Shown: positions 4,846 to 26,639 of the stretch, piece after piece | Layout: each line of letters starts with the position of its first letter | How positions within the stretch are numbered: the first letter of the stretch is position 1 | Virus record (IMG/VR): IMGVR_UViG_3300016294_000004 | Span: 1 to 42,321 of that record | Reading direction: 5' to 3' (one strand) | Origin: a virus | Lineage: Duplodnaviria; Caudoviricetes | DNA: 42,321 bases | Notes under the pieces: generated by a model | What the model saw: the letters and a program-made list of their open reading frames with translations, nothing else | Databases searched by the model: none | What the model was told of the DNA's origin: nothing | Translations under genes and position numbers: made by a program

Positions 4846-5066
4846 CAGTGCAACCTCTCGATGATCTTGGTCGCGTGCTCCTCAGCATCCGGCACGTCGA
4901 CGCCCATCGCACTCTCGAGCAGCGCCAGCCGCTCGTGCAGTGCCACGATGGCGACGCGCTGGGCATCGATCGCGTGCGCTTGGCTATGGACCGAGGCGCA
5001 CAGCCCGACCACGCGCTGTTCGAGCCACAGCACGCGGTCGCGCCAGAGCTTGAGGAACGGCGTCAC
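4845..5066 (-). CDS. Hypothetical coiled-coil protein
   Basis: 73 aa ORF overlapping both neighbours at stop/start codons. Confidence 0.55.
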
Positions 5067-5434
5067 GGCAGCAGCGGGATCCCGGTAGCGCCAGTGGCGC
5101 CGGTAGGTCCGGTCGGGCCGGTCGCCCCAGTACCGCCGGTGGGAGCGGCGGATGGGCCGATCTTCCCGGCCGAACCCGTGGCGCCCGTCGAGCCGGTCGT
5201 ACCGGTGGTTCCGGTGCCGCCGGTCTTGCCGATCGCACCGTCGGCGCCGGTGATGCCGACCGCCCAGTTGAACCCGGCCCGCAGCAGGCCGGAATCGAAC
5301 GCCGCCGGCGGGATCGACAGCACGCCGTTGGCGACGGTGTAGGTGTTGCCGTCCTTCAGGTAGAACTGCGACCCGTTGGGGAACGCCGCCGGCGCCGACA
5401 GCACGTAGCGGCCGTCATTCAGAGAATAGGACAT
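5063..5434 (-). CDS. Collagen-like (Gly-X-Thr) putative virion fibre/decoration protein
   Basis: Short globular N-terminus followed by [18 protein letters not shown]...GPT-GPT-GAT triplets. Confidence 0.7.
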
Positions 5435-5474
5435 GGTGTAACGCTCCTTGCGTTATGTGAACGTTACGCCAGCG

Positions 5475-5816
5475 TCACGGACCCGTCGGGCCAGTGGCTC
5501 CAGTCGCGCCCGTGCCGCCCACGGCTCCGGTAGCGCCGGTGTTGCCACCCGTCGGTCCGGTGGCACCGGTCCCGCCAGTACCGCCCGTGCCGCCTGTTCC
5601 GCCGACGCCGCCTACGGCGCCTGTGGCTCCGGTGGAGCCCGTGCCGCCGGTGCCTCCCGTCGGGCCGGTGCCGAAGTTATACCCGGCGGCGAACAGGTCA
5701 CGCGGGACGGCCGATTGCGGCATCGTCACCTGCCCGGATGCGACAGGATAGAAGACGCCGTCGAGGCCAAGCACGGAGCTGACGCCGGACGGTGCGTTGA
5801 TGGTCACGTTTGCCAT
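5475..5816 (-). CDS. Collagen-like (Gly-X-Thr) putative virion fibre/decoration protein, paralogue of 5063..5434
   Basis: ATG at 5816 with upstream GAGAGG reads MANVTINAPSG..., then [15 protein letters not shown] triplets to the C-terminus. Confidence 0.7.
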   Translation of the reverse strand: MANVTINAPSGVSSVLGLDGVFYPVASGQVTMPQSAVPRDLFAAGYNFGTGPTGGTGGTGSTGATGAVGGVGGTGGTGGTGGTGATGPTGGNTGATGAVGGTGATGATGPTGP

Positions 5817-7589: not shown

Positions 7590-7631
7590 AGCCCCTCGAG
7601 GCTGGATTAAACACCCCGCCGGCGGCGCCTG

Positions 7632-8447
7632 TCAATGGGCTCCGGACGAGCGGATTCGGCTGGCGAGGTCCCTGAAGCTCTCGCCGGGCCGGGCTCGGAT
7701 GCCGACCTCGACCGCCTTGCGCTGGATGCCGTCGTCGCTTGCCCACCATGGCTGGTCGGCCTTCTTCTGTTGCTGCGCACCAGCGGCGCCGGCGAGCCAG
7801 TCGGTCCTGATCGCCATCATCAGCGCAGCGTCCCAGTCGGCGTACCTGTAGCCGTTGGCCGTGGCCTTGTCGATGAAGTGCGCCACGTGCTCCTCGAGGT
7901 TGGCCACCTTGCGTTCCGCAGCCCATGCCCGGACCCGGTCCGATATGTCGAAGGGTGTTGGGATCGGGGTCTTGGGCGGTGTACTGCGTGGGGGTTTGGG
8001 GGAAGATTTTAAACTCTTTTCTTTTCTGGTAACAGTTAATTCGTTACCGTTGGGTAACGCTTGGAGCGTTACAGCACGGTGTGCCTGAGTCCTCACTTGC
8101 CCGAGAGCCCGCGTCTTTGCCGGTTTCCCGTTGTGGCGACCGAAGTGCGGAATAACCACGGACGGTGGATCGGTGGCATCTGAACATCTCAGCCAGCCGA
8201 CGCCCTGCAGCGCATGTGCGAAACCGGGTCTACGGACTATGTCGTCGATGTCTTCTGCAGATGCCTGCGTTACAACAGCGTTACAATCCGGTAACGCTGA
8301 CACCGTTACATTCGCGTCGCACCATATCCAGAACCGCACCAACAGGCCGACGACCTCATGCGGTGATACCTTCAAGACGCGCGCTAGCGCACGCACCTCT
8401 GGCTTGTCCGGCAGCCCGTGCTCGACCTTGATCCAACTACCTGCCAT
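7632..8447 (-). CDS. Phage replication initiator (lambda O / DnaT-like)
   Basis: The N-terminus (WIKV...DKPEV...VVGLLVRFWIWCD) resembles lambdoid replisome organisers. It has a Lys/Pro linker, a C-terminal YADWDAA helix and an internal iteron cluster. Confidence 0.7.
   Translation of the reverse strand: MAGSWIKVEHGLPDKPEVRALARVLKVSPHEVVGLLVRFWIWCDANVTVSALPDCNAVVTQASAEDIDDIVRRPGFAHALQGVGWLRCSDATDPPSVVIPHFGRHNGKPAKTRALGQVRTQAHRAVTLQALPNGNELTVTRKEKSLKSSPKPPRSTPPKTPIPTPFDISDRVRAWAAERKVANLEEHVAHFIDKATANGYRYADWDAALMMAIRTDWLAGAAGAQQQKKADQPWWASDDGIQRKAVEVGIRARPGESFRDLASRIRSSGAH
8005..8310. other. Putative replication origin: GTAAC/GTTAC iterons plus AT-rich tract inside the initiator gene
   Basis: (C)GTTAC or GTAAC(G) at 8029, 8042, 8054, 8067, 8268, 8279, 8291 and 8304, next to the AT-rich tract GATTTTAAACTCTTTTCTTTT (8005-8025). 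Confidence 0.6.
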
Positions 8448-8487
8448 GCCTGTCCTCCCCGGGGTTTGGTGTTGCGGTGCAGCAAGG

Positions 8488-8688
8488 TCAGACTGGCGGT
8501 ACCAGCCGATACTCGTAGACGTGCGCCTTGGCCTGTTCCATCGAGCGGCAGGCGTGCATTCCCTTGGCGTACCATAGCGCCTCGTCCCGGGACACGAACA
8601 CCTGCCGCGGGACGCCGCCTCGACCGAGCACGACCCACAGCTCGCGCGGGATCTGCGGCCGCACCTCGAGGGTCATCGCACTTGCCAT
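8488..8688 (-). CDS. Hypothetical protein
   Basis: 66 aa ORF in the minus-strand gene run. Confidence 0.5.
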   Translation of the reverse strand: MASAMTLEVRPQIPRELWVVLGRGGVPRQVFVSRDEALWYAKGMHACRSMEQAKAHVYEYRLVPPV

Positions 8689-8987
8689 AGCACGCGGTCC
8701 TTGTCGCTGATCCGGCAGGGTGAGTGCAGGTAGCCGCGGAACACCAGCCAGCGGACCACGTTACCCCATACGCGCTCGGTCGGCGGGCGCACGAGGTAGT
8801 ACTTCTTGCGCAGCTGATGGAAGCGCGGGTCGCGCCGCATGCGCTGGCAGCTGAAGCCGCACTCGCGCACGTCCGGGAGCATGAGGTAACTCTCGAGGAC
8901 GTGCGTCGCCCGGCGCATCCAGTCGTGCTGCAGGCGCTCGACGTTGAGTAACGCCGCCGCCATCCCTTCCAGTCGTGCCTGTTCCAT
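8673..8987 (-). CDS. Hypothetical protein
   Basis: 104 aa ORF with GAGGAG Shine-Dalgarno. Confidence 0.6.
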   Translation of the reverse strand: MEQARLEGMAAALLNVERLQHDWMRRATHVLESYLMLPDVRECGFSCQRMRRDPRFHQLRKKYYLVRPPTERVWGNVVRWLVFRGYLHSPCRISDKDRVLWQVR

Positions 8988-9002
8988 CGTCGTCTCCTCG
9001 GG

Positions 9003-9125
9003 TTAGTCCCGGCCCAGCCACATCACCACCAGCGCGCCGATCGCGGCCACGAACAGCGCGAACCAGACCAGCCACGCGGCCAGCCCCTGCATCCGGCTCC
9101 GCTCGTCCTCGTGGTTGTCGGCCAT
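9003..9125 (-). CDS. Small membrane protein
   Basis: MADNHEDERSRMQGLAAWLVWFALFVAAIGALVVMWLGRD, one hydrophobic segment; read directly from the sequence. Confidence 0.5.
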   Translation of the reverse strand: MADNHEDERSRMQGLAAWLVWFALFVAAIGALVVMWLGRD

Positions 9126-9185
9126 GGCTTCACCTTGCGTCGGTCGCGCTTCGGGCGGTTGGCTTCGCGGATTTCTCGTCGTCGG

Positions 9186-9416
9186 TCAGCATTTTTCCTC
9201 CTTCGCCGGCGGACTCGCGGCGGGGCCATCAAGCGCAACGTCTAATTCGTCGGCGGTCATATCCCTCAACTCCTCCAGCACGCGCTCGCGGGTCAGGCGT
9301 TCAACGGCGCGCCCAAACACAATATTGAGCGGCGTAGTCATGTCGTTTTCCGTCTCGGCGTAAGCGACCTTCCACGCGGCAAGAATCTCGTCGTCGGTCA
9401 GCATGGCATGGCTCAT
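9186..9416 (-). CDS. Hypothetical protein
   Basis: MSHAMLTDDEIL..., with GGGGGAG Shine-Dalgarno and ATGA overlap with the upstream stop. Confidence 0.55.
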   Translation of the reverse strand: MSHAMLTDDEILAAWKVAYAETENDMTTPLNIVFGRAVERLTRERVLEELRDMTADELDVALDGPAASPPAKEEKC

Positions 9417-9790
9417 TTCTCCCCCTCGCCGTCGTAGCATTCGCACGCAATTTCAACCGTTGACTCGGAAAACAAATCCGTCGTTGCGTCTTTGGCCGTC
9501 AACAGATCGGCCCACGCAAACGAACGTCCCAATCCCTTGATGCTCGTCAATTCCGCATTGGCTTCCATTGCCAGCGCTCGCTTCATTAGGTTCGGGTAGC
9601 GTTCACGCAGATCGAATATCTCGATCTTCTTGGAAGACGGACAAAAGAAACAAGCCGACTTCCCCGGCTGCGGCAGACCAACCCGCGCGATAGCCTGAAC
9701 GCATTCTCCGCGCCCCCATCCCCACTCGATCAATGGATAACGCTCGTTTGGGTGATCTTTGGCCCGATGCCACTCATACGTCGCGGTTGA
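9413..9790 (-). pseudogene. C-terminal fragment of a PAPS-reductase-family (PP-loop) protein
   Basis: YPLIEWGW.R.EC...GLPQPGKSACFFCP and a terminal CEC match the C-terminal half of phage PAPS-reductase-like proteins. The N-terminal SGG-containing domain and a good start are missing. Confidence 0.6.
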
Positions 9791-9989
9791 TCGTTCGATT
9801 GGTGTCGATACACAGTCGCGTGAGATTCGCGACCAACCATCGCCCACGCTCCGCGTCCTTCCTCAACTCCGCGTTCTCCGCTTCTAGCGCGGCGACGCGG
9901 GCGCGCAGGCGCTCGATTTCGATACACGGCTGCCCATCGTCCGGTTGACACTGACAATAGCGCCCCGATCCGTCAACACACAGGCTCAT
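9774..9989 (-). CDS. Hypothetical Ead/Ea22-like mosaic protein
   Basis: MSLCVDG...EIERLRARVAALEAENAELRKDAERGRWL; the coiled-coil plus KDAER.RWL motif is common in lambdoid accessory genes. Confidence 0.5.
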   Translation of the reverse strand: MSLCVDGSGRYCQCQPDDGQPCIEIERLRARVAALEAENAELRKDAERGRWLVANLTRLCIDTNRTINRDV

Positions 9990-10267
9990 TTCTCCCCCTC
10001 GCGGGCGGCAACGATGGCGGCGTCGATTGCTGAGGCACAATTAACTGCACCAAAGTTTCCAAGCGGGTCGGCCTCGTAGCATTCAATGCATAGATGTTTC
10101 GCGTGTTCAAATGCCGCAGTCTGCGCTTGCTTAGCCGCCTTCCGCAACTCTGCGTTCTCCGCTTCGAGCGCGGTGAGGCGAGAGCGTAGGTGTTCAATCA
10201 GGTCGTCGACATCGTCATCGGGCACTGGGTCTATCCACACGTCCGGCAGATCGGCGCTCATCGTCAT
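9986..10267 (-). CDS. Hypothetical mosaic coiled-coil protein
   Basis: MTMSADLPD...ALEAENAELRK...AIDAAI; shares a 35-bp segment with the next gene. Confidence 0.5.
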   Translation of the reverse strand: MTMSADLPDVWIDPVPDDDVDDLIEHLRSRLTALEAENAELRKAAKQAQTAAFEHAKHLCIECYEADPLGNFGAVNCASAIDAAIVAAREGEK

Positions 10268-10482
10268 AGCTTCACCTGCGGCACCTGCCCCACCGGCTGG
10301 CGCGTCTCGCCGAGGATCGTCGTGACCACTTGCCACTGATGTGTCTGCATTCGCGCGAACATGCCGCGGTAGCGCCGGCGCACCTCGGCCTCGGCCTCCT
10401 CCGGGGACGCCACGATATAGGCTCCGCAGTCGACCTTCATTCCGTCGCGGTCGAGCAACTGCACTTTGACCTTGTACGCCAT
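10264..10482 (-). CDS. Hypothetical protein
   Basis: MAYKVKVQLLD..., GGAGG Shine-Dalgarno, coupled to the upstream stop. Confidence 0.55.
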   Translation of the reverse strand: MAYKVKVQLLDRDGMKVDCGAYIVASPEEAEAEVRRRYRGMFARMQTHQWQVVTTILGETRQPVGQVPQVKL

Positions 10483-11003
10483 CACACCTCCAGAATCGGG
10501 ACGTGGTGCACGAACAGCATCAGCTTCCGCTTGATCACGTACGCCCGGTTGGCGCGCGTGATCGGGCTCTTGGAGTCCTCGACCACCCGGGTGCCGGTGT
10601 CGACCCAGCGGTAGACCGCGTCGGCTACATACGACACGCGCCGCTCGAGCAGGCGCCCGTCCGGCGCGCGCTGATCCGGGAGCAGCAGGAACGGCACCTG
10701 AAACTGCAGCCCGTCGATCAGACCGGCGGCCGCCAGCGTGCGCAGCTGGTCGGCGCGGTCGGCCTCGCGCTTGGAGGCGAAGCCGCGCGTCGGGGTCTCG
10801 TGGTACTTGCGCTCGACAGGAGCACTCGCCGGCCGGGCACCCCGAGGGGAGACTGACCTCGCCGCGTCGTCGCCGAGTGCGGACCCGGCCGGCGGTGCAT
10901 CCGTGTTCGGCCCGCCGATGCGGCTGGCCTTGCGCCACTCCTGCTTGCGCGTGAACTCGAGCAGGCTGTGCTCGTCCGGGAACCGCAAGTTACGCGTAGC
11001 CAC
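10482..11003 (-). CDS. DUF1064-like PD-(D/E)XK endonuclease / resolvase candidate
   Basis: GFASKREA...LQFQVPF...YVADAVY...VEDSK...YVIKRKLM motif set. Confidence 0.75.
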   Translation of the reverse strand: MATRNLRFPDEHSLLEFTRKQEWRKASRIGGPNTDAPPAGSALGDDAARSVSPRGARPASAPVERKYHETPTRGFASKREADRADQLRTLAAAGLIDGLQFQVPFLLLPDQRAPDGRLLERRVSYVADAVYRWVDTGTRVVEDSKSPITRANRAYVIKRKLMLFVHHVPILEV

Positions 11004-11102
11004 GGAACACCAGCAGCAGGTTATGCGTCCAGATGAACACGTCGAACAGCGCGAGCGCCGCGACGCACAGGGCGTGCGTCAGCCCGACCGTGATCATCGA
11101 GA

Positions 11103-11309
11103 TCACGACCGCCGCCGCTGCCGCATCCGATCGTAGTACCGGCGCAGCGTCTCCGCGGTCCGGTACGACGGGTTGCGACTGTATCCCTTCACCAGCTTGC
11201 GCAGCGTGTAGTACGACAACCCGGTGCGCCCCGCGATATGGCGGATCACGGCGTGGTTCGCCTGTCCGTCGTCGACGCAGTCAGCGCGCAAGATCGCGAG
11301 CACATCCAT
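11103..11309 (-). CDS. Cro/XRE-like helix-turn-helix regulator
   Basis: 68 aa, IRHIAGRTGLSYYTLRKLVKGYSRNPSYRTAETL, with GAGGAG Shine-Dalgarno. Confidence 0.7.
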   Translation of the reverse strand: MDVLAILRADCVDDGQANHAVIRHIAGRTGLSYYTLRKLVKGYSRNPSYRTAETLRRYYDRMRQRRRS

Positions 11310-11456
11310 GCCTGATACTCCTCAGTCGAGTGGACAACGGGAGCCACGCCCACGGGCGCAGCCCGCCGGCACGAAGCACCCGACGCAACGTCTGCGCCCG
11401 CCACGGATGGGAGCGCAGATAGACGTCGCCCAGTAGCAGCCTGCGGTCGCGCGTCC

Positions 11457-11744
11457 TCATGATCGCACCCGGAGGGCGGCGCGAACCACGTCACGCGTCT
11501 CAACCACCTCCTCAGCGGTCAGACCCTCTAGCATCTGCTTGTCGAGGGCGCGCTCGACCACGCGCAGCGCCTCCTCGAGGTCGTTGGTGCGACCGAGGCG
11601 CTCGAGCCTGCCGCCGGCCACGCCGCGGGCTCCGGCGCGTAGGATGAACAGTGCGCGCTCTTTGCGTGTGTCGAAGCGGTGTGTCCCGCCGTACCCGGCC
11701 GGCGCGTCCTGTGGGAATGTGACGGCGTAGATGGCCTTGTTCAT
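11457..11744 (-). CDS. Hypothetical early protein
   Basis: MNKAIYAVTFPQD..., ATGA overlap with the upstream gene. Confidence 0.55.
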   Translation of the reverse strand: MNKAIYAVTFPQDAPAGYGGTHRFDTRKERALFILRAGARGVAGGRLERLGRTNDLEEALRVVERALDKQMLEGLTAEEVVETRDVVRAALRVRS

Positions 11745-11956
11745 GGCAGGACCCGGACTTCCATGTAGCCATCGAAGCCCTCCGGGGCAGCGGCGGTGAT
11801 GCGCCGCTTGACCTCGGCCTTGGCGTCCGCGTAGGTGCCGGTAGCCCAGAGCAGGCCGTCGAACGCGTCGAAGCATTCGAACGCCCACATGCCGCGACCG
11901 CGCGGCTCCTTCAGGTGTTCCCGCGCGTATGGCGTCGTGTCGAAAGTGATGATCAT
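11741..11956 (-). CDS. Hypothetical early protein
   Basis: MIITFDTT...PRGRGMWAF, AAGGAG Shine-Dalgarno; first clear gene after the leftward promoter. Confidence 0.6.
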   Translation of the reverse strand: MIITFDTTPYAREHLKEPRGRGMWAFECFDAFDGLLWATGTYADAKAEVKRRITAAAPEGFDGYMEVRVLP

Positions 11957-12102
11957 CTTGCGTCTCCTTGGGGGTTTGGGGTTCAGACCGGGCAGGGTGC
12001 CAGCAACCACGGCATCGTCGGAGCGCTCGTTCGGGGGTTAGCCCACACCACCGGCGTCCGACTGAGTGTGCCTGCCTGTTCACCTGCCCAGTTCCAGACC
12101 GT

Positions 12103-12132
12103 ATTAGAACACCGGCCACGGTCACGTGTCAA
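12103..12132 (-). promoter_or_regulatory. Leftward sigma70-type promoter
   Basis: On the minus strand, TTGACA (12132-12127), 18-bp spacer, TCTAAT (12108-12103). The spacer contains ACC-N6-GGT. Confidence 0.7.
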
Positions 12133-12175
12133 GTGCCGTCCGTCGGCGGATCATAACCGCGGGCGGTTCCAGACC

Positions 12176-12205
12176 TTGACAGCTAACCAGCAACGGTGGT
12201 CTAAT
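12176..12205 (+). promoter_or_regulatory. Rightward sigma70-type promoter driving the purZ operon
   Basis: TTGACA (12176-12181), 18-bp spacer, TCTAAT (12200-12205). The spacer contains ACC-N6-GGT. Confidence 0.7.
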
Positions 12206-12234
12206 GACGCGCCATCACCCCAAAGGAGGTCCAC

Positions 12235-12450
12235 ATGATGCCCCGATACGTCCGCGCCGGCCGCGCCAAGCTGATCCGCGTCAAAATGTCCGTGCTGTTC
12301 CGGCGCAAGCCCGTGCGCGCGCATCGCCTGTCCCGTCGGCTTGCCGGCGGCGGGCGGCTGCCGTGGCTGCACATCCGCGAGAAGCTGCGGCTCGTCCGCG
12401 GCGGCGACTCGCCGCTGTTCGGGCGCGCTTTCGAGCGCGAGTGGCGATGA
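12235..12450 (+). CDS. Small Arg-rich protein
   Basis: AAAGGAGG Shine-Dalgarno; first ORF after the rightward promoter. Confidence 0.55.
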   Translation: MMPRYVRAGRAKLIRVKMSVLFRRKPVRAHRLSRRLAGGGRLPWLHIREKLRLVRGGDSPLFGRAFEREWR

Positions 12451-12626
12451 CGGAAGTCACGCTCCACGAGTTTATCGTCGGCTGCGCGGCCGCGGCGCGG
12501 ATCGTGGCCGACCGGGAGCACCTCGCCCAGCCGGTAATTGTCGTCAGCGTCAAGCTCGTGGACGAGGCGACCGGGCGCGAGCTGGGCGCGACCGAGGGCA
12601 CGTTTACGCTCCACACCAATCACTAG
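12447..12626 (+). CDS. Hypothetical protein
   Basis: MTEVTLHEFIVG..., ATGA overlap. Confidence 0.5.
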   Translation: MTEVTLHEFIVGCAAAARIVADREHLAQPVIVVSVKLVDEATGRELGATEGTFTLHTNH

Positions 12627-12637
12627 ACGAGGGAGAA

Positions 12638-13702
12638 ATGACACGACCGCGGCAACGGGTCACGATAGTGACCGACCTGCAGTACGGCAGCACCGGCAAG
12701 GGCCTGCTGTGCGGCTACTTGGCCCGGCGCGACCCGGCGATCACCGCCGCGGTCACGGCGTGGGCGCCTAACGCCGGCCACACTTTCATCGACGCCATGG
12801 GGCGTAAGTTCGTCCACCGGCAGCTGGCGAACTCGATCGCCTCGCCGGCGGTGCGCGAGATCTTCCTCGGCCCGGGCTCGGTCATCGACGTGGTGACGCT
12901 GGCCGCCGAGATCGAAAGCTGCCGCGACCTGATCAAGCGTGGTGTGCGTATCTACGCCCACGCCAACGCCGCGGTGCTGCGCGACCGGCACGTGGTCGAG
13001 GAGCAGGCGCTGCTGCGCATCGGCTCAACGCAGAAGGGCGCGAGCGCCGCGGTCATCGACAAGATGCGCCGCGACGTGTCGAGTGCGATCCTCGCCGAGA
13101 CCCTCAGCATCGAACTGGACGAGATCGGCGTCACGGTGCTGGACCCGGAGCGCTACTCGCACGAGCTGATGCAACACGCCGAGATTCTGGTCGAGGGCCA
13201 TCAGGGGTTCTCCCTGTCGGTCCACCACGGCATGTGGCCGTACACCACGAGCCGCGACACCAGCACCAGCGCGATCCTCGCCGACTGCGCCGTCGCGTTC
13301 CCGCTCGAGACCTCGGTGTGGGGCGTGTTGCGCACCTTTCCGATCCGGGTCGCCAACCGCTACGACGACGACGGCAAAATGATCGGGTTCTCCGGCCCGT
13401 GCTACGACGACCAGCTCGAGACGACGTGGCAGGCGCTCGGCCAGAAGCCGGAACTGACCACCGTCACGCAGCGCGTGCGCCGGGTGTTCACCTACTCGAC
13501 CCGGCAGATCGCGCACGCCACCAGCATCAACGGCGTGGACCACGTGTTCGTCAACTTCATGAACTACCTGCCGCCGGGCGAGCGCTGGGGCTTCATCCAG
13601 CGCGTGGCGTTCGACACCCACGTCCTGCCGCCCGACATGCTGTTCGGCTACGGCCCGACCGAGACCGATGTCCGCGAGTTCAACGACGAGGAGGCATGGT
13701 GA
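12638..13702 (+). CDS. purZ: N6-succino-2-amino-2'-deoxyadenylate synthase (PurZ, adenylosuccinate synthetase paralogue)
   Basis: PurA-family motifs PNAGH, GSTQKG, EG.QG, PYTTSR and TTVT..RR. The P-loop is QYGSTGKG (Ser in place of the PurA catalytic Asp of GDEGKG), with PIRV and an NFMN motif in place of the GTP-binding TKLD. Neighbours are mazZ and datZ. Confidence 0.93.
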   Translation: MTRPRQRVTIVTDLQYGSTGKGLLCGYLARRDPAITAAVTAWAPNAGHTFIDAMGRKFVHRQLANSIASPAVREIFLGPGSVIDVVTLAAEIESCRDLIKRGVRIYAHANAAVLRDRHVVEEQALLRIGSTQKGASAAVIDKMRRDVSSAILAETLSIELDEIGVTVLDPERYSHELMQHAEILVEGHQGFSLSVHHGMWPYTTSRDTSTSAILADCAVAFPLETSVWGVLRTFPIRVANRYDDDGKMIGFSGPCYDDQLETTWQALGQKPELTTVTQRVRRVFTYSTRQIAHATSINGVDHVFVNFMNYLPPGERWGFIQRVAFDTHVLPPDMLFGYGPTETDVREFNDEEAW

Positions 13703-14187
13703 TCAAGAAACACGATCCGTTCGACCGCTATCCGCTGCCATGGCGAGCCCTGCCGGAACTGGGGCGCGTGTTCGCCGCCAACGGCGCGCTGGTGTGCATG
13801 TGCGTCGCCTACGACGAGCAAGTCGGCGTGCGGCCCGAGATCGAGAGTCACGCGGAAGCCATCGCGGCGGCCGTCAACGCCGGCCAAGCTATAAACATAG
13901 CTGGCGCCTTCGCCGAAGTGCAGGAGAAGGTCACGGCGTGGGCGGACGAGGTATTCCCGGGCAGGCGACCGGAGATCGCGTTCATGAAGCTATTCGAGGA
14001 GGTGGGCGAGGTCGTGACCGACCCCTACAACCGGCTCGAGTGGGCGGACCTGATCGTGCTGATCGTCGACCTCGCCGCGATGTACGGCATCCGAGACCTC
14101 GGCTCGGCCGTGCTGGAGAAGATCAAGATCAACCGCGAGCGCCAGTGGGCTCGCTCCAAGACAGGAGTTATGAGTCATGTTGAGTGA
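13696..14187 (+). CDS. mazZ: MazG-like (d)GTP diphosphohydrolase (MazZ) with an N-terminal extension
   Basis: WADEVFP...KLFEEVGE...EWAD...D...KIKINRERQW all-alpha NTP pyrophosphatase pattern; sits between purZ and datZ. Confidence 0.8.
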   Translation: MVIKKHDPFDRYPLPWRALPELGRVFAANGALVCMCVAYDEQVGVRPEIESHAEAIAAAVNAGQAINIAGAFAEVQEKVTAWADEVFPGRRPEIAFMKLFEEVGEVVTDPYNRLEWADLIVLIVDLAAMYGIRDLGSAVLEKIKINRERQWARSKTGVMSHVE

Positions 14188-14758
14188 AGCACGCGAGATG
14201 ACGCTGCACGAGCGGCTGCGGAACCAAGTCACCAAGCGCTGGCACATCGTGCACACCGACCGGGAACAGACGGTCGCCGAGCACCTGTGGGCGGTGACGA
14301 TCATCGGCTGGGACTTCTACAAGCGGATGGACTTCACGCTGCCGTTCGACCTGTGGACCGAGTACCTGCTGACGCACGACATTACCGAGGCCATCACCGG
14401 CGACCTGCCGACGCCGAGCAAGAAGTTGCTCAAGTTCGACGGCGACACGCTCGGCTACGACGTCTCTAAGCAGTTCGCGGCGATCGATCTGTGGGCGAAT
14501 ACCTTCGACGGCGGTCTGCCCCGGGCGGCGCTCAAGGTGTGCGATCTGACCGAGGCTATCGTGCACATGGACCGGCACGGCCGCGGCGCGCACGCCCAGT
14601 CGGTCCGCCGGCTGTTGTTCGACGCACTGGTCGCCCACGTAATGCACGTCCGCACTGTCTGGCCGGCGTACGACTGGATCACCCACGGTTCCGAGCTGTT
14701 CAACTCCGCCCTGTCCGGGCCGGGGGGTCTGCCGGACGGGGAGCTGTGGCTGTTCTAA
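14177..14758 (+). CDS. datZ: HD-domain dATP triphosphohydrolase (DatZ)
   Basis: KRWHIV...QTVAEH...HDITEAITGDLPTP.K...KVCD..EA, the HD pattern of DatZ; adjacent to purZ and mazZ. Confidence 0.85.
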   Translation: MLSEAREMTLHERLRNQVTKRWHIVHTDREQTVAEHLWAVTIIGWDFYKRMDFTLPFDLWTEYLLTHDITEAITGDLPTPSKKLLKFDGDTLGYDVSKQFAAIDLWANTFDGGLPRAALKVCDLTEAIVHMDRHGRGAHAQSVRRLLFDALVAHVMHVRTVWPAYDWITHGSELFNSALSGPGGLPDGELWLF

Positions 14759-14860
14759 CCGTCTGCGGTGTTGGAGAGCCGACGGACGGTCATTGTGTCC
14801 CATAACCGCCTGTGGTTTAATAGAGGTGTAGTAAAGCCCAAACCACCACGAAACGGAGAT
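14755..14860 (+). promoter_or_regulatory. Repeated promoter/operator/leader module
   Basis: TTGTGT (14793), 17-bp spacer, TTTAAT (14816); ACC-N6-GGT at 14758 and 14805; aligns over about 100 bp with 16314-16413. Confidence 0.7.
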
Positions 14861-14866
14861 CCTTCG

Positions 14867-15061
14867 ATGAAGACAACCCAAACCGGCGTCAACTTCACGT
14901 TCGTGCGCTACATCGCGATCCGGTCCAAGGGCTTCAACGGCCCGGTCGACACGCTCGAGCTGTACACGGACGACGCCAACGGCGAGTTCATCCTAATTCA
15001 AGGCGGCCGCGTCGTCAAGGACGAACGCCTTCTCGCCCTCGTTCGTGCGGGGCGCGTATGA
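14867..15061 (+). CDS. Hypothetical protein
   Basis: MKTTQTG..., GGAG Shine-Dalgarno after the repeated promoter. Confidence 0.55.
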   Translation: MKTTQTGVNFTFVRYIAIRSKGFNGPVDTLELYTDDANGEFILIQGGRVVKDERLLALVRAGRV

Positions 15062-15288
15062 TCACCGTCAGCGAACGCCACAACTTCGAGAACGGCGACC
15101 GCCGCTATTTCGGCCAATACACCCGCGGCACGCGCACGATTGAGTTCGTGTGCAAGCGCTGGCGCCCGGAGGGCGAGTTCACGTTCGAATCCGCGACCGT
15201 CGACGGTGCCGGCGTGTTCCTGACCAACGCCGAGATGCTCGTGATCAACGACGCCTGCGACCGCTTCGACCAGCGGTGCATGCCGTGA
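15058..15288 (+). CDS. Hypothetical protein
   Basis: 76 aa, ATGA overlap. Confidence 0.55.
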   Translation: MITVSERHNFENGDRRYFGQYTRGTRTIEFVCKRWRPEGEFTFESATVDGAGVFLTNAEMLVINDACDRFDQRCMP

Positions 15289-15545
15289 CCGCCGCGTCCG
15301 CCAAGCCGGCCCGCCCCAAGTGGGGCGAGCCCGGCTCGCGCACCCGGCGCGTCACCCGGGGCCGCGTCTGGTCGAGCGGCAAGTACCGGCCCGTGATCGT
15401 GATCGTCTACCCGGACGGCGTGATCGGGCTCCGGCTGCTCGGCACGCGCAGCGAGGAGACCGTGTTCGCCGCGGACGTGTTCCGGCGCGCGGCGCTCGAG
15501 CGGGCCGCCTTCGAGCGGCGCAAGAAGAAGGGGAAGGCGTCATGA
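15285..15545 (+). CDS. Hypothetical basic protein
   Basis: GTGA overlap; ...RPVIVIVYPDGVIGLRLLGTR... Confidence 0.55.
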   Translation: MTAASAKPARPKWGEPGSRTRRVTRGRVWSSGKYRPVIVIVYPDGVIGLRLLGTRSEETVFAADVFRRAALERAAFERRKKKGKAS

Positions 15546-15994
15546 CCCCGTTCGTGCAGAGTGCGCTATCGCCGGAGGCGTTCGATGTCTGGCGCTACAT
15601 CCGCGACGGAATGTCTCACGAGGACGCCGAGGCGACCGTGGCCCACCTGCTGCGCGACATGATCTTCGTCAACGACATCTATCAGGTCAACATGCAACTC
15701 GTCCCGGCGCAGCCCGCCAGTGGCTGGCCGGAGATGTGGCACCTGTCGATCAAGCGGCGTGACAAGAAGATCATCCGCGACTGGCGCCACCTGCAGCGGA
15801 TCAAGAACGAATTGGTCGGCCCGGAGCACGAGGGCATGGAGCTGTTCCCGGCCGAGAGTCGGCTCGTCGACTCCGCAAATCAGTACCACCTGTGGGTCAT
15901 GGTCGACGCGACCAAGCGGTTCCCCCTCGGCTGGCAGACCCGGTTCGTCGACGACGCGCCATATCCCAACACCAAGCAGAGGCCGTTACCATGA
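15542..15994 (+). CDS. Conserved phage protein (HLSI...W..LQRIKNELVG...E.FP...LVD.AN.YHLW family)
   Basis: Motif pattern recalled from a widespread phage domain of unknown function; ATGA-coupled. Confidence 0.65.
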   Translation: MTPFVQSALSPEAFDVWRYIRDGMSHEDAEATVAHLLRDMIFVNDIYQVNMQLVPAQPASGWPEMWHLSIKRRDKKIIRDWRHLQRIKNELVGPEHEGMELFPAESRLVDSANQYHLWVMVDATKRFPLGWQTRFVDDAPYPNTKQRPLP

Positions 15995-16317
15995 ATAAGG
16001 CCGCGTTCCGCGCCTCGCTGGCCGAGCTTCAGCTCGAACTGACCAAGCTCACCGCCTCGAAGGGCGAGGACTACAGCAACAGCGACGACCAGCTGGCGAA
16101 CTTCAAGCGGCTGGCCGAGCGGCTGGGCACGACGCCGGAGACGATCGCACTCGTCCATCTGTCCAAGCATCTCGACGCGATCGACTCGTACGTGCGCCGG
16201 CGCGCCGATGCGACGTACCGGCCGTCCGAGCCGATCCGGGGTCGCATCCTCGACGCAATCCTGTACCTATGGCTGCTCGAGTGTCTGCGGGCGGAGCGCG
16301 AGCCGGCCGCGCACTGA
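15991..16317 (+). CDS. Nucleotide-modification-associated MazG-like / all-alpha NTP pyrophosphohydrolase-like protein
   Basis: KGEDYS...LANFK...KH.DAI...E.I.GRI.DAI.YL pattern seen in proteins near phage nucleotide-modification clusters. Confidence 0.6.
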   Translation: MNKAAFRASLAELQLELTKLTASKGEDYSNSDDQLANFKRLAERLGTTPETIALVHLSKHLDAIDSYVRRRADATYRPSEPIRGRILDAILYLWLLECLRAEREPAAH

Positions 16318-16413
16318 CCGCCTGTGGTGTGGCCCGTCCGACGAGCGGTTATTGACACGCTAACCGCGTCCGGTTACAATAGAGGTGTCGTAAGCCCAAA
16401 CCCCAACGGAGAC
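16314..16413 (+). promoter_or_regulatory. Repeated promoter/operator/leader module (near-consensus sigma70)
   Basis: TTGACA (16352), 17-bp spacer, TACAAT (16375); ACC-N6-GGT at 16317 and 16363. Confidence 0.8.
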
Positions 16414-16419
16414 CACACC

Positions 16420-16677
16420 ATGGCAACCACCCTGATCATCACGCTGCTGGAACAGACCGACGACGGCGACGTCGTCCCCGTCAACCTTGGTATCGCCTCG
16501 AGCCCGGACGAAGCCGTCGAGCTGGCGAAGGACGGATTCCGCCGCTGGACGAATTTCGAACTCTCGCCGCGCAGCCTCGAGGACGTCGCGACGCTGTCGC
16601 TGGCGATCTGCCGCAACCGCGACCACGAAGTGTCGTACAAGATCCCGGGCACCCGCATCTGGATCGAGGGGCGCTAA
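16420..16677 (+). CDS. Hypothetical protein
   Basis: MATTLIITLL..., GGAG Shine-Dalgarno. Confidence 0.55.
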   Translation: MATTLIITLLEQTDDGDVVPVNLGIASSPDEAVELAKDGFRRWTNFELSPRSLEDVATLSLAICRNRDHEVSYKIPGTRIWIEGR

Positions 16678-16678
16678 C

Positions 16679-16879
16679 ATGAACCGCTACTCCGTCACCG
16701 TGTTCCGCGCCACCCGCAACCCGGCCCGCTTCGTCGTCGACGCCCTCGACGGCGCGCACGCCGCCTGCATCGGCTGGCTCCGCGCCACCGACAACCACTA
16801 CACGCCGCTGGTCGATCCGCAGGGCCTCGACCACTACGTCGTCGACGGCCTACACGTCTGGGCCTCCCCGCACGAATGA
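16679..16879 (+). CDS. Hypothetical protein
   Basis: MNRYSVTVF..., GAGGGG Shine-Dalgarno. Confidence 0.5.
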   Translation: MNRYSVTVFRATRNPARFVVDALDGAHAACIGWLRATDNHYTPLVDPQGLDHYVVDGLHVWASPHE

Positions 16880-16956
16880 CCCAGCCTCCGCCCCGGCGTG
16901 CCGGGGCGCGGGATTGGCCAATCGGTCGATCACCCAACCCAACCTAGGAGAACACC

Positions 16957-17961
16957 ATGGCACACATGATCGACGACTCAAAGGGCTTCCCCGCAATCGC
17001 GTTCGTTGGCGAGACCCCGTGGCACGGACTCGGCACGCAGCTGACCCCGGACGCGGACATCGACACGTGGACCCGTGAAGCCGGCCTCGACTACGAGGTC
17101 AAGGAATCGATGGTGAAGTACCTCGACGGCGACGAGCTGAAGGACTACCCGGAGCGCAAGGTGCTGTTCCGCTCTGACACCGGCATGCGCCTGTCCGTCG
17201 TGTCGAAGCCGTACTGCACCGTCCAGCCGCGCGTGATCATGGACTTCTACCGCGCCTTGGCCGAGAAAAACAAGGTCCGGATGGAGGTCGCCGGCGCGCT
17301 GGACGGCGGCCGCCGGATCTGGGCGCTCATGCGCTTGGGCGAGGGCGTCAAGCTGCTGCACGCCGAGGAGGTCCGCCCGTACCTGCTCGTCGCCACGTCG
17401 TACGACACGTCGATGGCGACCATCGGCAAGGACACCGGCATCTGCGTGGTGTGCAACAACACGCTCACCATGGCCGCTGGCAACGCCAACACCGGCGAAG
17501 GGCAGTCGGAGAAGGACAGCGTCGCGATCCGGATCCCGCACTCGCAGGAGTTCGACATCGACGAGGCGCGGATCGAGCTGGGCCTGTGCTTCGACCGCTT
17601 CGAGGAGTTCATCAGCAATGCCCGCCGGCTGGCCAAGGTCAAGGTCGACGACGCGTTCGCGACGCAGTTCCTCAAGACGCTCCTCCCGACCCCGGTCAAG
17701 ACCATCGAGGGCAAGCGGGTCGAGCTGAAGGTCGAAGAGGGCAAGACGTTCAAGTGGATCATGGACCTGTTCAAGGGCCAGCAGATGGGCGCCGACATCG
17801 AGGAGCGCAGCGGCACGGCCTATGGCCTGCTCAACGCCGTGACCGAGTACGTCGACCACCATCGCGGCGTGCAAGCGTCCCGCCTGTCGTCGGCGTGGTT
17901 CGGCAACGGCGGCGCACTCAAGGACGACGCACTGCGCATCCTGTGCGAAGTGACCGCGTAG
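16957..17961 (+). CDS. DUF932 family phage/plasmid protein (TIGR03299-like)
   Basis: MAH...PWHGLG...AGLD.EV...AGALDGGRRIW...VCNNTL...GTAYGLLNAVTEYVDH...WFG motifs. Confidence 0.85.
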   Translation: MAHMIDDSKGFPAIAFVGETPWHGLGTQLTPDADIDTWTREAGLDYEVKESMVKYLDGDELKDYPERKVLFRSDTGMRLSVVSKPYCTVQPRVIMDFYRALAEKNKVRMEVAGALDGGRRIWALMRLGEGVKLLHAEEVRPYLLVATSYDTSMATIGKDTGICVVCNNTLTMAAGNANTGEGQSEKDSVAIRIPHSQEFDIDEARIELGLCFDRFEEFISNARRLAKVKVDDAFATQFLKTLLPTPVKTIEGKRVELKVEEGKTFKWIMDLFKGQQMGADIEERSGTAYGLLNAVTEYVDHHRGVQASRLSSAWFGNGGALKDDALRILCEVTA

Positions 17962-17976
17962 TGGTGTGGTGATTCC

Positions 17977-18004
17977 GCCGGGGCGCGAGCCCCGGCTTTT
18001 TCTT
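17977..18004 (+). terminator. Rho-independent terminator
   Basis: GCCGGGGC-GCGA-GCCCCGGC 8-bp stem with a GNRA loop, followed by TTTTTCTT. Confidence 0.85.
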
Positions 18005-18016
18005 CAGGGAGACACA

Positions 18017-18280
18017 ATGAAAACCCTAATCGTAGCACTGGCCGTCGGGCTCGCCGCCTGCGCGACCGTTCCGACGTTCCGCCCGGCGGCGAATCAGGAC
18101 CAGCAGGCGCTCGCGAGCGCCGACTACGACTGCCGGCTGCAGGTCAAGGAAGCGTCCAAGGGCCGCTGGGCATCCGGCGGTCTGCTGTTCCTCGCCATCG
18201 CGGCGCAGAGCGCCGCCAATCAGGACCGTGACCTGTACGTGTCGTGCATGCAGGCCCACGGTTTCGTTGCCAACCCCTAG
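18017..18280 (+). CDS. Putative lipoprotein
   Basis: MKTLIVALAVGLAAC is a signal peptide with an LAAC lipobox; Cys pair DC...CM..HG. Confidence 0.7.
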   Translation: MKTLIVALAVGLAACATVPTFRPAANQDQQALASADYDCRLQVKEASKGRWASGGLLFLAIAAQSAANQDRDLYVSCMQAHGFVANP

Positions 18281-18291
18281 GAGAATGCCCT

Positions 18292-18522
18292 ATGCTGAAG
18301 CGTCTCATCCGCGGCATCCGCGTGTTGCTGCTCAGGAACGACATCGCCCACCTCGAGTCGGCCATCGACGAGGAGCGCGAGCGTCACGCCCAGTTCGACG
18401 CGCGGATGCGATCGTGGATGCGGGAGGTCCAGTGGCGCCGGGGCGAGATCGAGCGCCTGTACGGGCGGCCGCTCGAGATCGACTGGAGCTTGGCCGGATA
18501 CCCGTCGGTCCGTAAACCGTGA
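18292..18522 (+). CDS. Hypothetical coiled-coil protein
   Basis: 76 aa, AGGAG Shine-Dalgarno. Confidence 0.5.
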   Translation: MLKRLIRGIRVLLLRNDIAHLESAIDEERERHAQFDARMRSWMREVQWRRGEIERLYGRPLEIDWSLAGYPSVRKP

Positions 18523-19313
18523 ACCGCTTCGTGCGCGATCTGCCGGCGGCCGACTACCACAAGGTCGAGGCCCTGTCCGCGTCCGGCGCCAAGAAGCTGC
18601 TCAAGTCGGCGCTCCACTACCGGCTCGAGCGCGACCACCCGTCGGAGCCGACGGCCTCGATGCAGCTCGGCACGCTGGTTCACCTGTTGGTCCTCGAGCG
18701 CGACCGCGTCGCGTCCGGGGTCGCGATCTTCGAGGGCAAAAGCCGGAAGGGCAAGGCGTGGGACGAGTTCGAGCTGGAGCACGCCGGCCAGCTTATCGTG
18801 ACGGTGGAGGAGTTCGGATTCGCGACCGCCATGGCCGACAGCGTGGCCGACCACCCGGCGGCCGCCAAGCTGCTCGCCGCCGCCACGGAGCGCGAGTTCT
18901 CGCTGTTCTGGACCGACGCGCAGTATGGCGTGCCGTGCAAGTGCCGGTTCGACCTGATCGCGCTGGGCGGCGGCGTCGACCTGAAGAGTACCAGCGACGC
19001 TTCGCCCGACGGCTTCCCCCGGCTGGCGGCGACCTACGGCTACCACATCGGCGCGGCGCACTACAACTCCGGGGCGGAGCATGTGCTCAACGAATCGCTC
19101 CGGTTCTTCGTCCTGATCGCGGTCGAGAACGAACCGCCGCACGCGGTCGCGGTCTACAATTTTGACCCGGCCGACATCATGGCCGGGCAGCACCAGATGG
19201 CGATTGCCGCCGAGCGCTACCGGGACGCATTGGCCCGGAACGTCTGGGCCGGCTACTCGCCGACCATCCAACCGCTACGCATGCCGCGCTGGGCGCGGCG
19301 CTTCGACGTCTAG
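18519..19313 (+). CDS. RecE / exonuclease VIII-like PD-(D/E)XK exonuclease (DUF3799-like)
   Basis: YH...LSAS...GTLVH...LE...E.S.FW...KCRFD...DLKST...YGYH..AA.Y motifs; upstream of Bet. Confidence 0.85.
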   Translation: MNRFVRDLPAADYHKVEALSASGAKKLLKSALHYRLERDHPSEPTASMQLGTLVHLLVLERDRVASGVAIFEGKSRKGKAWDEFELEHAGQLIVTVEEFGFATAMADSVADHPAAAKLLAAATEREFSLFWTDAQYGVPCKCRFDLIALGGGVDLKSTSDASPDGFPRLAATYGYHIGAAHYNSGAEHVLNESLRFFVLIAVENEPPHAVAVYNFDPADIMAGQHQMAIAAERYRDALARNVWAGYSPTIQPLRMPRWARRFDV

Positions 19314-19323
19314 GAGAAACGAC

Positions 19324-20286
19324 ATGGCAGAAGAAGGTCAACAGGAAGTCATCAAGGCTCCGGCGAAGGTCGCCTCCGGCGGGCTCGTCACCAAGCTCGC
19401 CAACCGCTTCGAGGTCGAGCCGTCCAAGCTCCTGACGACGCTCAAGTCGACGGTGTTTCGGGTCCCGGCCAAGAACGGCGGCACCGAGGAGATCTCAAAC
19501 GAGGAGATGATGGCGCTGCTGGTGGTCGCCGACCAGTACAAGCTGAACCCGTTTACCCGGGAGCTGTTCGCGTTCCCCAACAAGAGCGGCGGCATCGTCC
19601 CGGTCGTCTCCGTCGACGGCTGGTCGCGGATCATCAACGAGCACCCGCAGTTCGACGGGCTCACCTTCGAGGTCGGCCCGGGCGACGAAGCCAAATACCG
19701 CGGAGCGCCGGCGTGGATCGAGTGTATCATCCACCGCAAGGACCGCTCGCACCCCATCGTGGTCCGCGAGTGGATGCGCGAGTGCTTCCGCGACACTGGC
19801 CCGTGGCAGAGCCACCCGGGCCGGATGCTCCGGCACAAGTCGCTGATTCAGTGCGCCCGGCTAGCGTTCGGGTTCGCCGGCATCTATGACGAAGACGAGG
19901 CCGCCCGGATCGTGGAGGGGGAAGCGACACGAGTCCAGAATGCCGCGGTCGACGACATCAACGCCGCCCTGACGCCAAGGCCGGCGCCGATCATCATCGA
20001 CGGCGAGACCGGAATCGCGACACAGGCCGGCACGGGCGGAGGTGTAGCACCGGAGCCGCCCGCCGCGGAGCCACCCGCCGAGCCGGCGAAGCCATCGGAG
20101 CCACCCGCCGCGGAGCCGGCGAAGCCGAAGAAGGTCACGTATGGTACAATCGCGGTCGCGATCAGCTCGGCCAAGACCAAGGACGCGCTACACAAGGCCG
20201 AGGCGCTGATCGACACGAACATTGACGACATGATGCGCCGGGACGAGCTGCACGTGATCGCGGCCGCCCGGCTGCAGCGGCTATGA
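19324..20286 (+). CDS. bet: Single-strand annealing recombinase, lambda Bet/RecT family
   Basis: LLVVADQYKLNPFTRELFAFP...GGIVPVVSVDGWSRIINEHPQFDG...GPWQSHP.RMLRHK..IQCARLAFGFAGIYDEDEA closely matches lambda Bet. Confidence 0.92.
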   Translation: MAEEGQQEVIKAPAKVASGGLVTKLANRFEVEPSKLLTTLKSTVFRVPAKNGGTEEISNEEMMALLVVADQYKLNPFTRELFAFPNKSGGIVPVVSVDGWSRIINEHPQFDGLTFEVGPGDEAKYRGAPAWIECIIHRKDRSHPIVVREWMRECFRDTGPWQSHPGRMLRHKSLIQCARLAFGFAGIYDEDEAARIVEGEATRVQNAAVDDINAALTPRPAPIIIDGETGIATQAGTGGGVAPEPPAAEPPAEPAKPSEPPAAEPAKPKKVTYGTIAVAISSAKTKDALHKAEALIDTNIDDMMRRDELHVIAAARLQRL

Positions 20287-23078: not shown

Positions 23079-23293
23079 AGCTGCGCGTTACGTTTGACAT
23101 CGAGGCACCGTACGACGTCGTCAACGACCGCGAACTCGAGCAGAAGATGGCGCGCGGTCTCATGGTGCGCGTGGACGAGTGGCTCGCCTATTGCGCCGAC
23201 CTGTTCGGCGGCAAGATCGTGCGGCACAACGCGCGGTTCACCCGGCTTGCGACCGACGACGAGCGCGAGCTGTACGTCCCCGGGAGACACTGA
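23075..23293 (+). CDS. Hypothetical protein
   Basis: MKLRVTFDI..., GGAGG Shine-Dalgarno, ATGA overlap. Confidence 0.55.
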   Translation: MKLRVTFDIEAPYDVVNDRELEQKMARGLMVRVDEWLAYCADLFGGKIVRHNARFTRLATDDERELYVPGRH

Positions 23294-23496
23294 TGGATCT
23301 CGCCGCTGCGATCTCGGCCTACGTCGAGGCCCGCCTCGAGCTGGAGCGCCACTACAAGGCGGCATCGCCGCCGCCACACGTCGATATCAACTACCGGCTC
23401 AAGCTGTCACAGCTCCATTGCGTCTGCCGGATGATCGAACAACAAAAGGGCGAGCCGCAGCCCGCCCCAAAGACAGGACCGAACAAGAAGAAGTGA
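23293..23496 (+). CDS. Hypothetical protein
   Basis: MDLAAAISAY..., TGATG overlap; last plus-strand gene. Confidence 0.5.
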   Translation: MDLAAAISAYVEARLELERHYKAASPPPHVDINYRLKLSQLHCVCRMIEQQKGEPQPAPKTGPNKKK

Positions 23497-23497
23497 T

Positions 23498-24001: not shown

Positions 24002-24151
24002 GGCGAACAGATTGTATCATACAACAAATGACACCGCAATGACACCCCGCGGCGGCCTCTCCGTGGCGCTCCAGATGGCGCCAAGCTATAACCATAGCCG
24101 GACGCTCCCGGGAGCCCAAGGAGACCCCCAAGGAGCGCGCCGGCGACCCCG

Positions 24152-24358
24152 TCACTTGAGCCTGACTGCCCCGATCTCCGCGACCCCGACGAGGTTCAGC
24201 AGCAGGACGATCAGGATGACGCAGATGACGACCACAAACACGATCCGCACGAGCTTGCCGACCGGTTCCGGCAGGGTGAACTGGCCGATGATCCACCAGC
24301 CAAGCCCGGCGATGATGACGAGAACCAACAGCCAGATCAGGAACGCGACTAGCGACAT
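24152..24358 (-). CDS. Small two-TM membrane protein, holin candidate
   Basis: MSLVAFLIWLLVLVIIAGLGWWII...LPEP...IVFVVICVILIVLLL; GGAGG Shine-Dalgarno; in the lysis region. Confidence 0.6.
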   Translation of the reverse strand: MSLVAFLIWLLVLVIIAGLGWWIIGQFTLPEPVGKLVRIVFVVVICVILIVLLLNLVGVAEIGAVRLK

Positions 24359-24366
24359 GATGCCTC

Positions 24367-25167: not shown

Positions 25168-25170
25168 GTC

Positions 25171-25925: not shown

Positions 25926-25927
25926 GA

Positions 25928-26635: not shown

Positions 26636-26639
26636 CGCA

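Follow-up and report, generated by a model that had tools for sequence, protein, structure and literature searches.

The soil phage genome analyzed here, IMG/VR record IMGVR_UViG_3300016294_000004 (Duplodnaviria; Caudoviricetes), comprises 42,321 nt (referred to in its entirety as the window) and was found to carry the purZ, mazZ and datZ genes of the 2-aminoadenine (Z) pathway, with no detectable polymerase, primase or helicase of its own. Z-containing DNA is therefore likely to be made by the host replication machinery. It is considered probable, at roughly two chances in three, that this triad of genes shifts the deoxynucleotide (dNTP) pool and that the host replisome, loaded at a phage origin, puts Z into the progeny DNA. 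Z chemistry and pool-based selectivity are already known; the novelty lies in a phage that has the Z triad and no polymerase of its own. The first-pass annotation of the window had inferred that Z incorporation depends wholly on the nucleotide pool. Such dependence is known from phage S-2L and from Escherichia coli carrying the triad, and it is the lack of any phage polymerase that remains as the new part.

The Z cluster was confirmed and appears intact, with open frames and catalytic residues present. The purZ gene (12638-13702, plus strand) is predicted to encode a 2-amino-deoxyadenylosuccinate synthetase of 354 aa, which scored 306.9 bits against NCBIfam NF038379 (cut-off of 300) and matched the PurZ proteins of phiVC8 and S-2L with E values of about 1e-66 (3e-67 for phiVC8), compared with 6e-21 for PurZ0 (7vf6). 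Its motifs GSTGKG, ELTTVT (with the TTVT aspartate loop) and NFxNY align with phiVC8 PurZ, the first having Ser at the place of the catalytic Asp of PurA and the last, which is adenine-binding, corresponding to N306, F307, N309 and Y310. The mazZ gene (13696-14187, plus strand; 163 aa; PF04447) encodes a MazZ-1/DUF550 protein with an N-terminal extension, in which E35, E38, E50, D53, D60 and R83 of the S-2L protein are conserved, metal ligands included, and I56 is replaced by V (residue roles as given for S-2L MazZ in PMC8342488). With V at this position, an activity on dGTP only or on both dATP and dGTP is possible. The product of datZ (14177-14758, plus strand; 193 aa; phrog_7076) is a predicted HD-domain dATP triphosphohydrolase with 6zpa as its sole PDB match (E 2e-14), and it conserves S-2L W20 and I22, whose roles are described in bioRxiv 10.1101/2025.10.22.683976.

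The G+C content at third codon positions (GC3) of purZ, mazZ and datZ is 0.94, 0.84 and 0.91, respectively, similar to that of the head and tail genes (0.86-0.92), which suggests that the cluster is long resident. As lambdoid genomes readily acquire cargo, recent capture of the cluster as inert cargo was considered. This is very improbable given the intact frames, the catalytic residues, a codon use that matches the genome and the conservation of gene order at about 50% identity in L185, the record with the nearest PurZ in a readable context (53% PurZ identity), with which the window shares a PurZ clade of its own (SH-aLRT 99). A further gene (15991-16317, plus strand) encodes an all-alpha phrog_6802 protein, a candidate fourth nucleotide-pool enzyme with a MazG-like lead. 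This gene was present in 12 of 53 loci with both PurZ and PolA and in L185, compared with none of 19 purZ-free initiator loci, and the protein has invariant KGxxY, NF, KH and ExxxGRxxD motifs. The Atlas lead was DUF1599 (18% of one cluster); Foldseek gave no PDB match at E<=0.001, and its best rows were MazG-like, every one at E>0.5. The protein is possibly an uncharacterised nucleotide pyrophosphatase of the Z pathway.

Sixty two genes were called in the window from lists of Open Reading Frames (ORFs) and a codon-use score, and no polymerase, primase, helicase or integrase was hit among them with Pfam and PHROGs, nor among 56 ORFs, of which 37 are overlapping alternative frames, with NCBIfam. 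Six-frame searches of the window with PF00476 (PolA, E<=1), PF00136 (PolB), PF07733 (Pol III alpha), PF03796 (DnaB) and PF00589 (tyrosine integrase) were empty, and tblastn of the window with two DpoZ-type proteins gave a best E value of 0.4. Phage records provided working positive controls for PolA, Pol III alpha and DnaB, and built-in control genomes did so for PolB and integrase. The model PF09250 missed its positive control, S-2L, and was discounted because its result is uninformative. The S-2L PrimPol and superfamily 2 (SF2) helicase found nothing in the window under an E value of 0.2, a search that a very remote archaeo-eukaryotic primase could escape. The absence of DpoZ/PolA, PrimPol, helicase and primase noted at first pass was thus borne out by profile, ORF and six-frame searches, and no hidden polymerase or primase ORF was found.

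A polymerase might be supplied otherwise, by an unrecognised phage protein or by a co-infecting DpoZ phage that is parasitised. Profile searches do miss remote folds, as PF09250 did on S-2L, and several small early genes are without annotation, one example being DUF7694, for which there was no usable Atlas hit. However, every gene of the early region above ~200 aa with coding-like codon use has an assigned family, the S-2L PrimPol finds nothing, and a complete set of head, tail and lysis genes together with an initiator and iterons of its own is unlike a satellite, which makes this explanation improbable.

The replication initiator (7632-8447, minus strand; 271 aa; phrog_2509, E 4e-35) has matches in 59 phage records, which include Rac ydaU and ones annotated as "primosomal protein I". 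Its predicted structure (pLDDT 75.7) has an N-terminal winged helix and a putative DnaT-like three-helix domain at residues 156-222. No PDB entry matched the initiator at E<=0.001 in Foldseek; with VIA, the top two of 48,161 chains for the second domain were DnaT structures (4ou6, Z-score 6.0; 6aep, Z-score 5.9; rmsd of ~4 with 66-67 residues aligned), a middling match. DnaT is described as binding single-stranded DNA and bridging to DnaB/C (PMC4132743). The gene had been called O-like at first pass; it is an initiator, but the label is loose, as the protein is a Rac-YdaU-like winged-helix initiator with a putative DnaT-like second domain. The likely origin (8003-8310, minus strand) comprises iteron clusters at 8042-8072 and 8268-8309 (GTAACG/CGTTAC) and an A-rich putative unwinding tract at 8003-8032 (77% AT). 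The iterons are internal to the initiator gene, as had been reported: seven of the 19 copies of GTAACG in the genome lie inside this 816-nt gene beside the AT-rich tract, adjoining the 30-, 50- and 100-mers with the highest AT content genome-wide. Of 18 homologous initiator genes inspected, 8 also have CGTTAC as one of their top hexamers.

The window was found to represent a circular phage genome. A direct terminal repeat of 123 nt, present as identical copies at 1-123 and 42199-42321, is the assembly overlap of the circle, and IMG/VR classes the record as direct terminal repeats (DTR), 100% complete. The circle was recovered in three other assemblies: the end junction is bridged at 100% by L101, from another assembly, and the metagenome-assembled genome (MAG) G105 holds the whole circle in two all-phage contigs (34,780 and 7,795 nt) without host flank. 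The stretch 7600-17500 was present at >=90% of words in 24 soil runs, which may be one site, so that this is not taken as wide distribution; contigs from seven of these runs, the assemblies of which differ, were compared with the window.

Between the initiator and purZ, contigs are interrupted at 9283-9776, and the window lacks ~450 nt there, as might be seen if a Z phage had been joined to a lambdoid phage or a replication module dropped by misassembly. The break corresponds to three alleles of one PAPS-reductase-like gene (9313-9771), one full and two with different middle deletions, coexisting in the same samples. The window has the 3' part of this gene (9413-9771, minus strand), which matches phrog_424 at positions 290-380 only. 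It is a deletion allele that lacks, at 9771/9772, ~450 nt with the 5' part of the gene (computed from record coordinates), which is the only sequence that other assemblies add to the window. The longer allele is present in record 5 of assembly X3, which reads through it in full, and in L192 (1-381), and 222 differing bases of L186 (120-341) encode the start of the gene whose end sits in the window. In addition, the contigs of assembly X1 (39,300 and 2,721 nt, minus two 30-nt overlaps) sum to 41,961 nt, the size of the circle with the shorter allele, one contig of assembly X2 covers 9775-28400 without a break, and the circle of G105 is complete in its two contigs. Misassembly is largely refuted by these observations and is scarcely credible. 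No dropped module was found, and the completeness assumed at first pass stands with the correction that the window is a deletion allele. The cassette around the PAPS-reductase-like gene has a low GC3 (0.61), and the purZ fragment G053 has a PAPS-reductase-like gene near its initiator too.

The combination of purZ with no polymerase is rare (3 of 44 other near-complete records) yet recurrent, and it is found with three initiator families. PurZ scans of viral_contigs gave 143, 404 and 154 relatives, of which the best 80 of each scan were available. A PF00476 search of 103 PurZ records was positive for 49 of the 50 longest, 42 of 50 further ones and none of three fragments chosen for having no PolA near purZ; no dereplication was applied to these records, and polymerase-free sequences had served as seeds for the third scan. 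Among the matches listed, PolA was present in 41 of the 44 uncultured PurZ records that are at least 90% complete, the exceptions being G039, G056 and G060 (each rated 100% complete). These carry purZ, datZ and a lambdoid-type initiator and gave no match to PolA, PolB, PolC or S-2L PrimPol. Six incomplete records were also PolA-free: G061, in which purZ is preceded by an ordinary Z-phage primase, and five others that are 9-37% complete. G039 (41,962 nt, linear, no end repeat) has DUF550, datZ, purZ, DnaB, RecT and exonuclease genes and a 210-aa ORF read by eye as an initiator, with no family hit. G056 (29,192 nt, with an 81-nt terminal repeat) and G060 (32,115 nt, linear), in which 44 and 12 ORFs were scanned, respectively, share a phrog_270/678 O-like initiator, terL, purZ directly after terL, and datZ; the fragments G052-G054 group with them.

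The gene order of L185 is that of the window (HTH-purZ-mazZ-datZ-phrog_6802-RecE-RecT, HTH being a helix-turn-helix gene), with a gene for SSB (a protein that binds single-stranded DNA) too, and no polymerase was detected in the 12.8 of its 22.2 kb examined. The closest PurZ relatives are P0003 and P0005 (the latter on a 42-kb contig), and these, the window and L185 form the single clade mentioned above in quick trees of 76 and 35 rows. The polymerase-free groups lie apart in these trees, but independent capture of purZ by the three was rejected as a claim, as an approximately unbiased (AU) test does not reject a single clade for all polymerase-free PurZ (p-AU 0.19). For this reason only different initiators are claimed, those of the three groups having no cross-hit at E<=1. 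The survey of purZ contigs suggested at first pass thus yielded three exceptions with lambdoid-type initiators. The proposal of an undescribed Z-phage lineage stands in part: no polymerase-free PurZ phage was found in the literature searched (the predicted-Z-virus tables of the 2021 Science and PurZ0 papers may list some), but three initiator families do not make a single lineage.

Neither a scan with the single PurZ protein nor a DNA pattern specific to the clade turned up a relative in viral_contigs. No purZ lay within <=10 kb per side of the phrog_2509-type initiator in 78 other loci, and plasmids contained no purZ at E<=1e-30. Genomes of GTDB contained 12 purZ-like loci: one is the window phage, unflanked, five have PolA beside purZ, and the remaining six, at 30-34%, are only distantly related and gave no datZ match. 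A prophage state was rejected on this basis. Of 201 cultured records matching PurZ, eight were checked and all have a polymerase of their own (six PolA, the S-2L PrimPol and the Pol III alpha of Bacillus phage vB_BpsS-140). Distant PurZ-like proteins of 540-564 aa were also observed in the bacterial MAG contigs L201 (4609-11038), L202 and L203, that of L201 being fused to a kinase-like N-terminus and lying beside four tyrosine recombinase genes.

Among the Z phages treated in PMC8342488, every one but S-2L has a PolA, and the phage polymerase is called a critical feature in PMC12944874. Phages of the phiVC8, SH-Ab 15497 and PMBT28 type resemble the window in their ATP-type PurZ (40-44% identity), DatZ and DUF550/MazZ, but have a PolA, usually 0.3-4.3 kb from purZ, and helicase and primase genes in the two records whose annotation was inspected. 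S-2L has purZ-mazZ-datZ in the same order as the window, a MazZ-1 type enzyme, no DpoZ, and a PD-(D/E)XK nuclease and annealing protein near purZ. It reaches full substitution by pool control with a non-selective PrimPol (PMC8342488, PMC10201439); this PrimPol and the SF2 helicase are its own, whereas the window has neither and an iteron-type initiator instead. In vB_BpsS-140 a gene of the PurZ family (GSEGKG, PurZ0-like) likewise occurs without PolA in a cultured phage, but this phage has its own Pol III alpha in two unannotated ORFs (L273:26885-30492) and a primase-helicase, and no datZ or mazZ match was found within the 33 kb examined. It also has a dUTPase and may be a Z phage whose polymerase is of family C. 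The initiators of the Rac-prophage YdaU/phrog_2509 type are like that of the window in the N-terminal domain (36-45% identical) and in having CGTTAC iterons followed by a purine tract; the window differs from these loci in having purZ near the initiator and no loader or helicase gene beside it. Finally, E. coli with a Z cluster is like the proposed situation in that a host replisome copies from a triad-shifted pool, although that system is artificial, toxic and partial (4-23% Z), while the arrangement of the window is natural and recurrent.

From characterised homologues, MazZ would convert dGTP to dGMP, PurZ would convert dGMP to a succinyl intermediate, and host PurB, Gmk and Ndk would complete the synthesis of dZTP. 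DatZ and PurZ would remove dATP, and host polymerases would accept dZTP. The anatomy of the genome suggests that a divergent control region drives early transcription of the Z cluster along with RecE and Bet; that the initiator would bind its own iterons and open the A-rich tract; that its DnaT-like domain may hold the single strand and recruit host DnaB, primase and Pol III; and that RecE, Bet and the resolvase may build concatemers for packaging. We infer that a phage borrowing the host replisome and expressing the triad has Z-containing DNA. In support of such copying, Klenow is reported not to discriminate between A and Z (PMC8342488), and the triad alone gave Z in E. coli, at 12.1% of plasmid (22.7% normalised) and 3.9% of chromosome (PMC8342488), while that of PMBT28 gave 19-20% (PMC12944874).

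Several points weigh against this reading. The triad was only partially effective (4-23%) and toxic in E. coli (PMC8342488), and Z rose to 29-61% when DpoZ, helicase and SSB were added (PMC12944874). The DnaT-like match of the initiator reaches a Z-score of only 6, and among the 62 genes and by PF03796 no helicase loader (P/DnaC-like) or DnaB was found beside the initiator, the neighbours being unassigned genes of 66 and 104 aa. Folding of early genes covered the initiator and the phrog_6802 protein. The unwinding tract is not AT-richer than in 24 purZ-free homologous loci (20 of 30, compared with 14-21), so that the origin shows no compensation for the third hydrogen bond of Z:T; an adaptation of this kind was looked for and discarded. 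In the palindrome comparison (53 loci with purZ and PolA against 19 purZ-free initiator loci, dereplicated, >=15 kb), the window lies at the border between both groups for A/T-containing 6-mers (log2 observed/expected of -0.39), and GATC is almost wholly avoided in G056 and G060 (below -8), which suggests that their GATC sites remain a target. For 4-mer palindromes containing A/T, the window (0.13) shows no avoidance, like the loci with PolA (median of -0.01, compared with -0.21 in purZ-free loci), which is a weak and confounded signal in favour of Z. Avoidance of GC-only palindromes was rejected as a signature of Z, since 4-mers gave no separation (p 0.13), the window has no 6-mer trend, and both GC and host confound the comparison. 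CCGG is also almost wholly avoided in G060, despite purZ and datZ.

Some of these observations would suit a triad that is active but mainly poisons the host pool or blunts a defence, the packaged DNA being mostly A and the cluster late or weak. The toxicity to E. coli and the stated sensitivity of sigma factors and AT-rich origins to Z (PMC8342488) fit this, as do the lack of adaptation in the window origin, the GATC avoidance, and the late position implied by purZ after terL in G056 and G060. However, the pool that feeds the host replisome would also feed a phage copied by it, and active PurZ and DatZ should then leave their mark on the phage DNA. In the window, moreover, purZ comes third behind the promoter-like site of an operon that also contains RecE and Bet. 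Such a role is accordingly thought unlikely, though less so than an overlooked polymerase, and incorporation of Z by the host replisome is preferred.

Regarding its extent, substantial but incomplete substitution is tentatively placed somewhat ahead of near-complete substitution, which seems rather doubtful. The first-pass annotation had Z arising wholly from the reshaped pool and the host replisome. The core of that proposal is retained, while a full-Z genome does not follow from it, as the E. coli replisome gave 4-23%. An unlikely but far-reaching version would combine an essentially all-ZTGC natural genome, an iteron origin that is opened and copied wholly by unmodified DnaB/DnaG/Pol III, three unrelated initiator families, promoters of the window lineage in which the adenine that sigma reads at -11 is missing, and a fourth pool enzyme of MazG-like type that helps to clear dATP.

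The early region is divergent. The HTH, DUF1064 and initiator genes point leftward, as do small ones; in the rightward direction purZ, mazZ, datZ, phrog_6802, DUF932, RecE and Bet are followed by a gene for a 931-aa fusion protein. Between them is a putative divergent promoter-like pair (12102-12205, one TTGACA-18-TCTAAT per strand), one directed toward the initiator operon and one toward the Z operon. TTGACA-18-T[C/T]TAAT occurs at three sites (12176 plus, 12132 minus and 7635 minus), and for TTGACA-N16..19-TNTAAT three window sites compare with a mean of 0.0 in 200 resamples, the motif having been spotted by eye before counting and its register being putative. A similar divergent pair is conserved in position in L185 (1216 plus, 1196 minus). 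These sites have a near-perfect -35, and TCTAAT, TTTAAT or TCAAAT replaces TATAAT, while a site at 16352 is canonical. If the register is right, three sites would lack A at -11, the base read by sigma. This does not appear to be a general effect of Z, as A is present at -11 in 147 of 234 such sites of the 53 loci with PurZ and PolA, whose canonical sigma-70-like promoters suggest that host RNA polymerase tolerates Z at -11.

The remaining early genes agree with the earlier description of RecE, Bet and a DUF1064-like nuclease. They encode the DUF1064 nuclease, a likely Holliday junction resolvase (10482-11003, minus strand; PF06356; phrog_190, E 2e-18); a small Cro-like HTH regulator of 68 aa (11103-11309, minus strand; phrog_6223, E 9e-5), with a homolog at the same place in L185; a DUF932/TIGR03299 protein (16957-17961, plus strand; Pfam and NCBIfam), found in 9 of the 53 loci with PurZ and PolA; a RecE/exonuclease VIII-type nuclease (18519-19313, plus strand; phrog_412, E 9e-75); and a Bet-like single-strand annealing protein (19324-20286, plus strand; TIGR01913, above cut-off). 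At the end of the early operon (20283-23078), the 931-aa protein has a methyltransferase domain fused to a GT2 glycosyltransferase and to TPR repeats; DNA, the cell surface or the virion could be what it modifies. The packaging, head, tail and lysis set is complete among the 62 genes and lies on the minus strand. Genes with collagen-like Gly-X-Y repeats are found at 5063-5816 (a pair between terL and portal) and 26640-28490 (tail-fibre region). The capsid and portal are nearest to those of Brevundimonas phages Strzyga and Polewnik (39-42%) and gene relatives are proteobacterial; G105 is titled Vicinamibacterales, a weak hint of the host as it comes from binning alone. No integrase (PF00589) or partition gene and no CI-type repressor was found, the 68-aa HTH being the only regulator detected, and G105 has no host flanks, which suggests that this phage is likely lytic.

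With the window phage it becomes testable whether host RNA polymerase, the replisome of a cell and an iteron origin can function with DNA that is fully Z-substituted. It also raises the question of how far pool control alone reaches, and both matters stand in the way of a ZTGC cell. Were substitution partial, phages of this type would be natural A/Z hybrid genomes, whereas natural Z DNA is reported in PMC13128860 with complete substitution only. The enzymes of polymerase-free Z phages are candidates for a higher Z yield with host polymerases.

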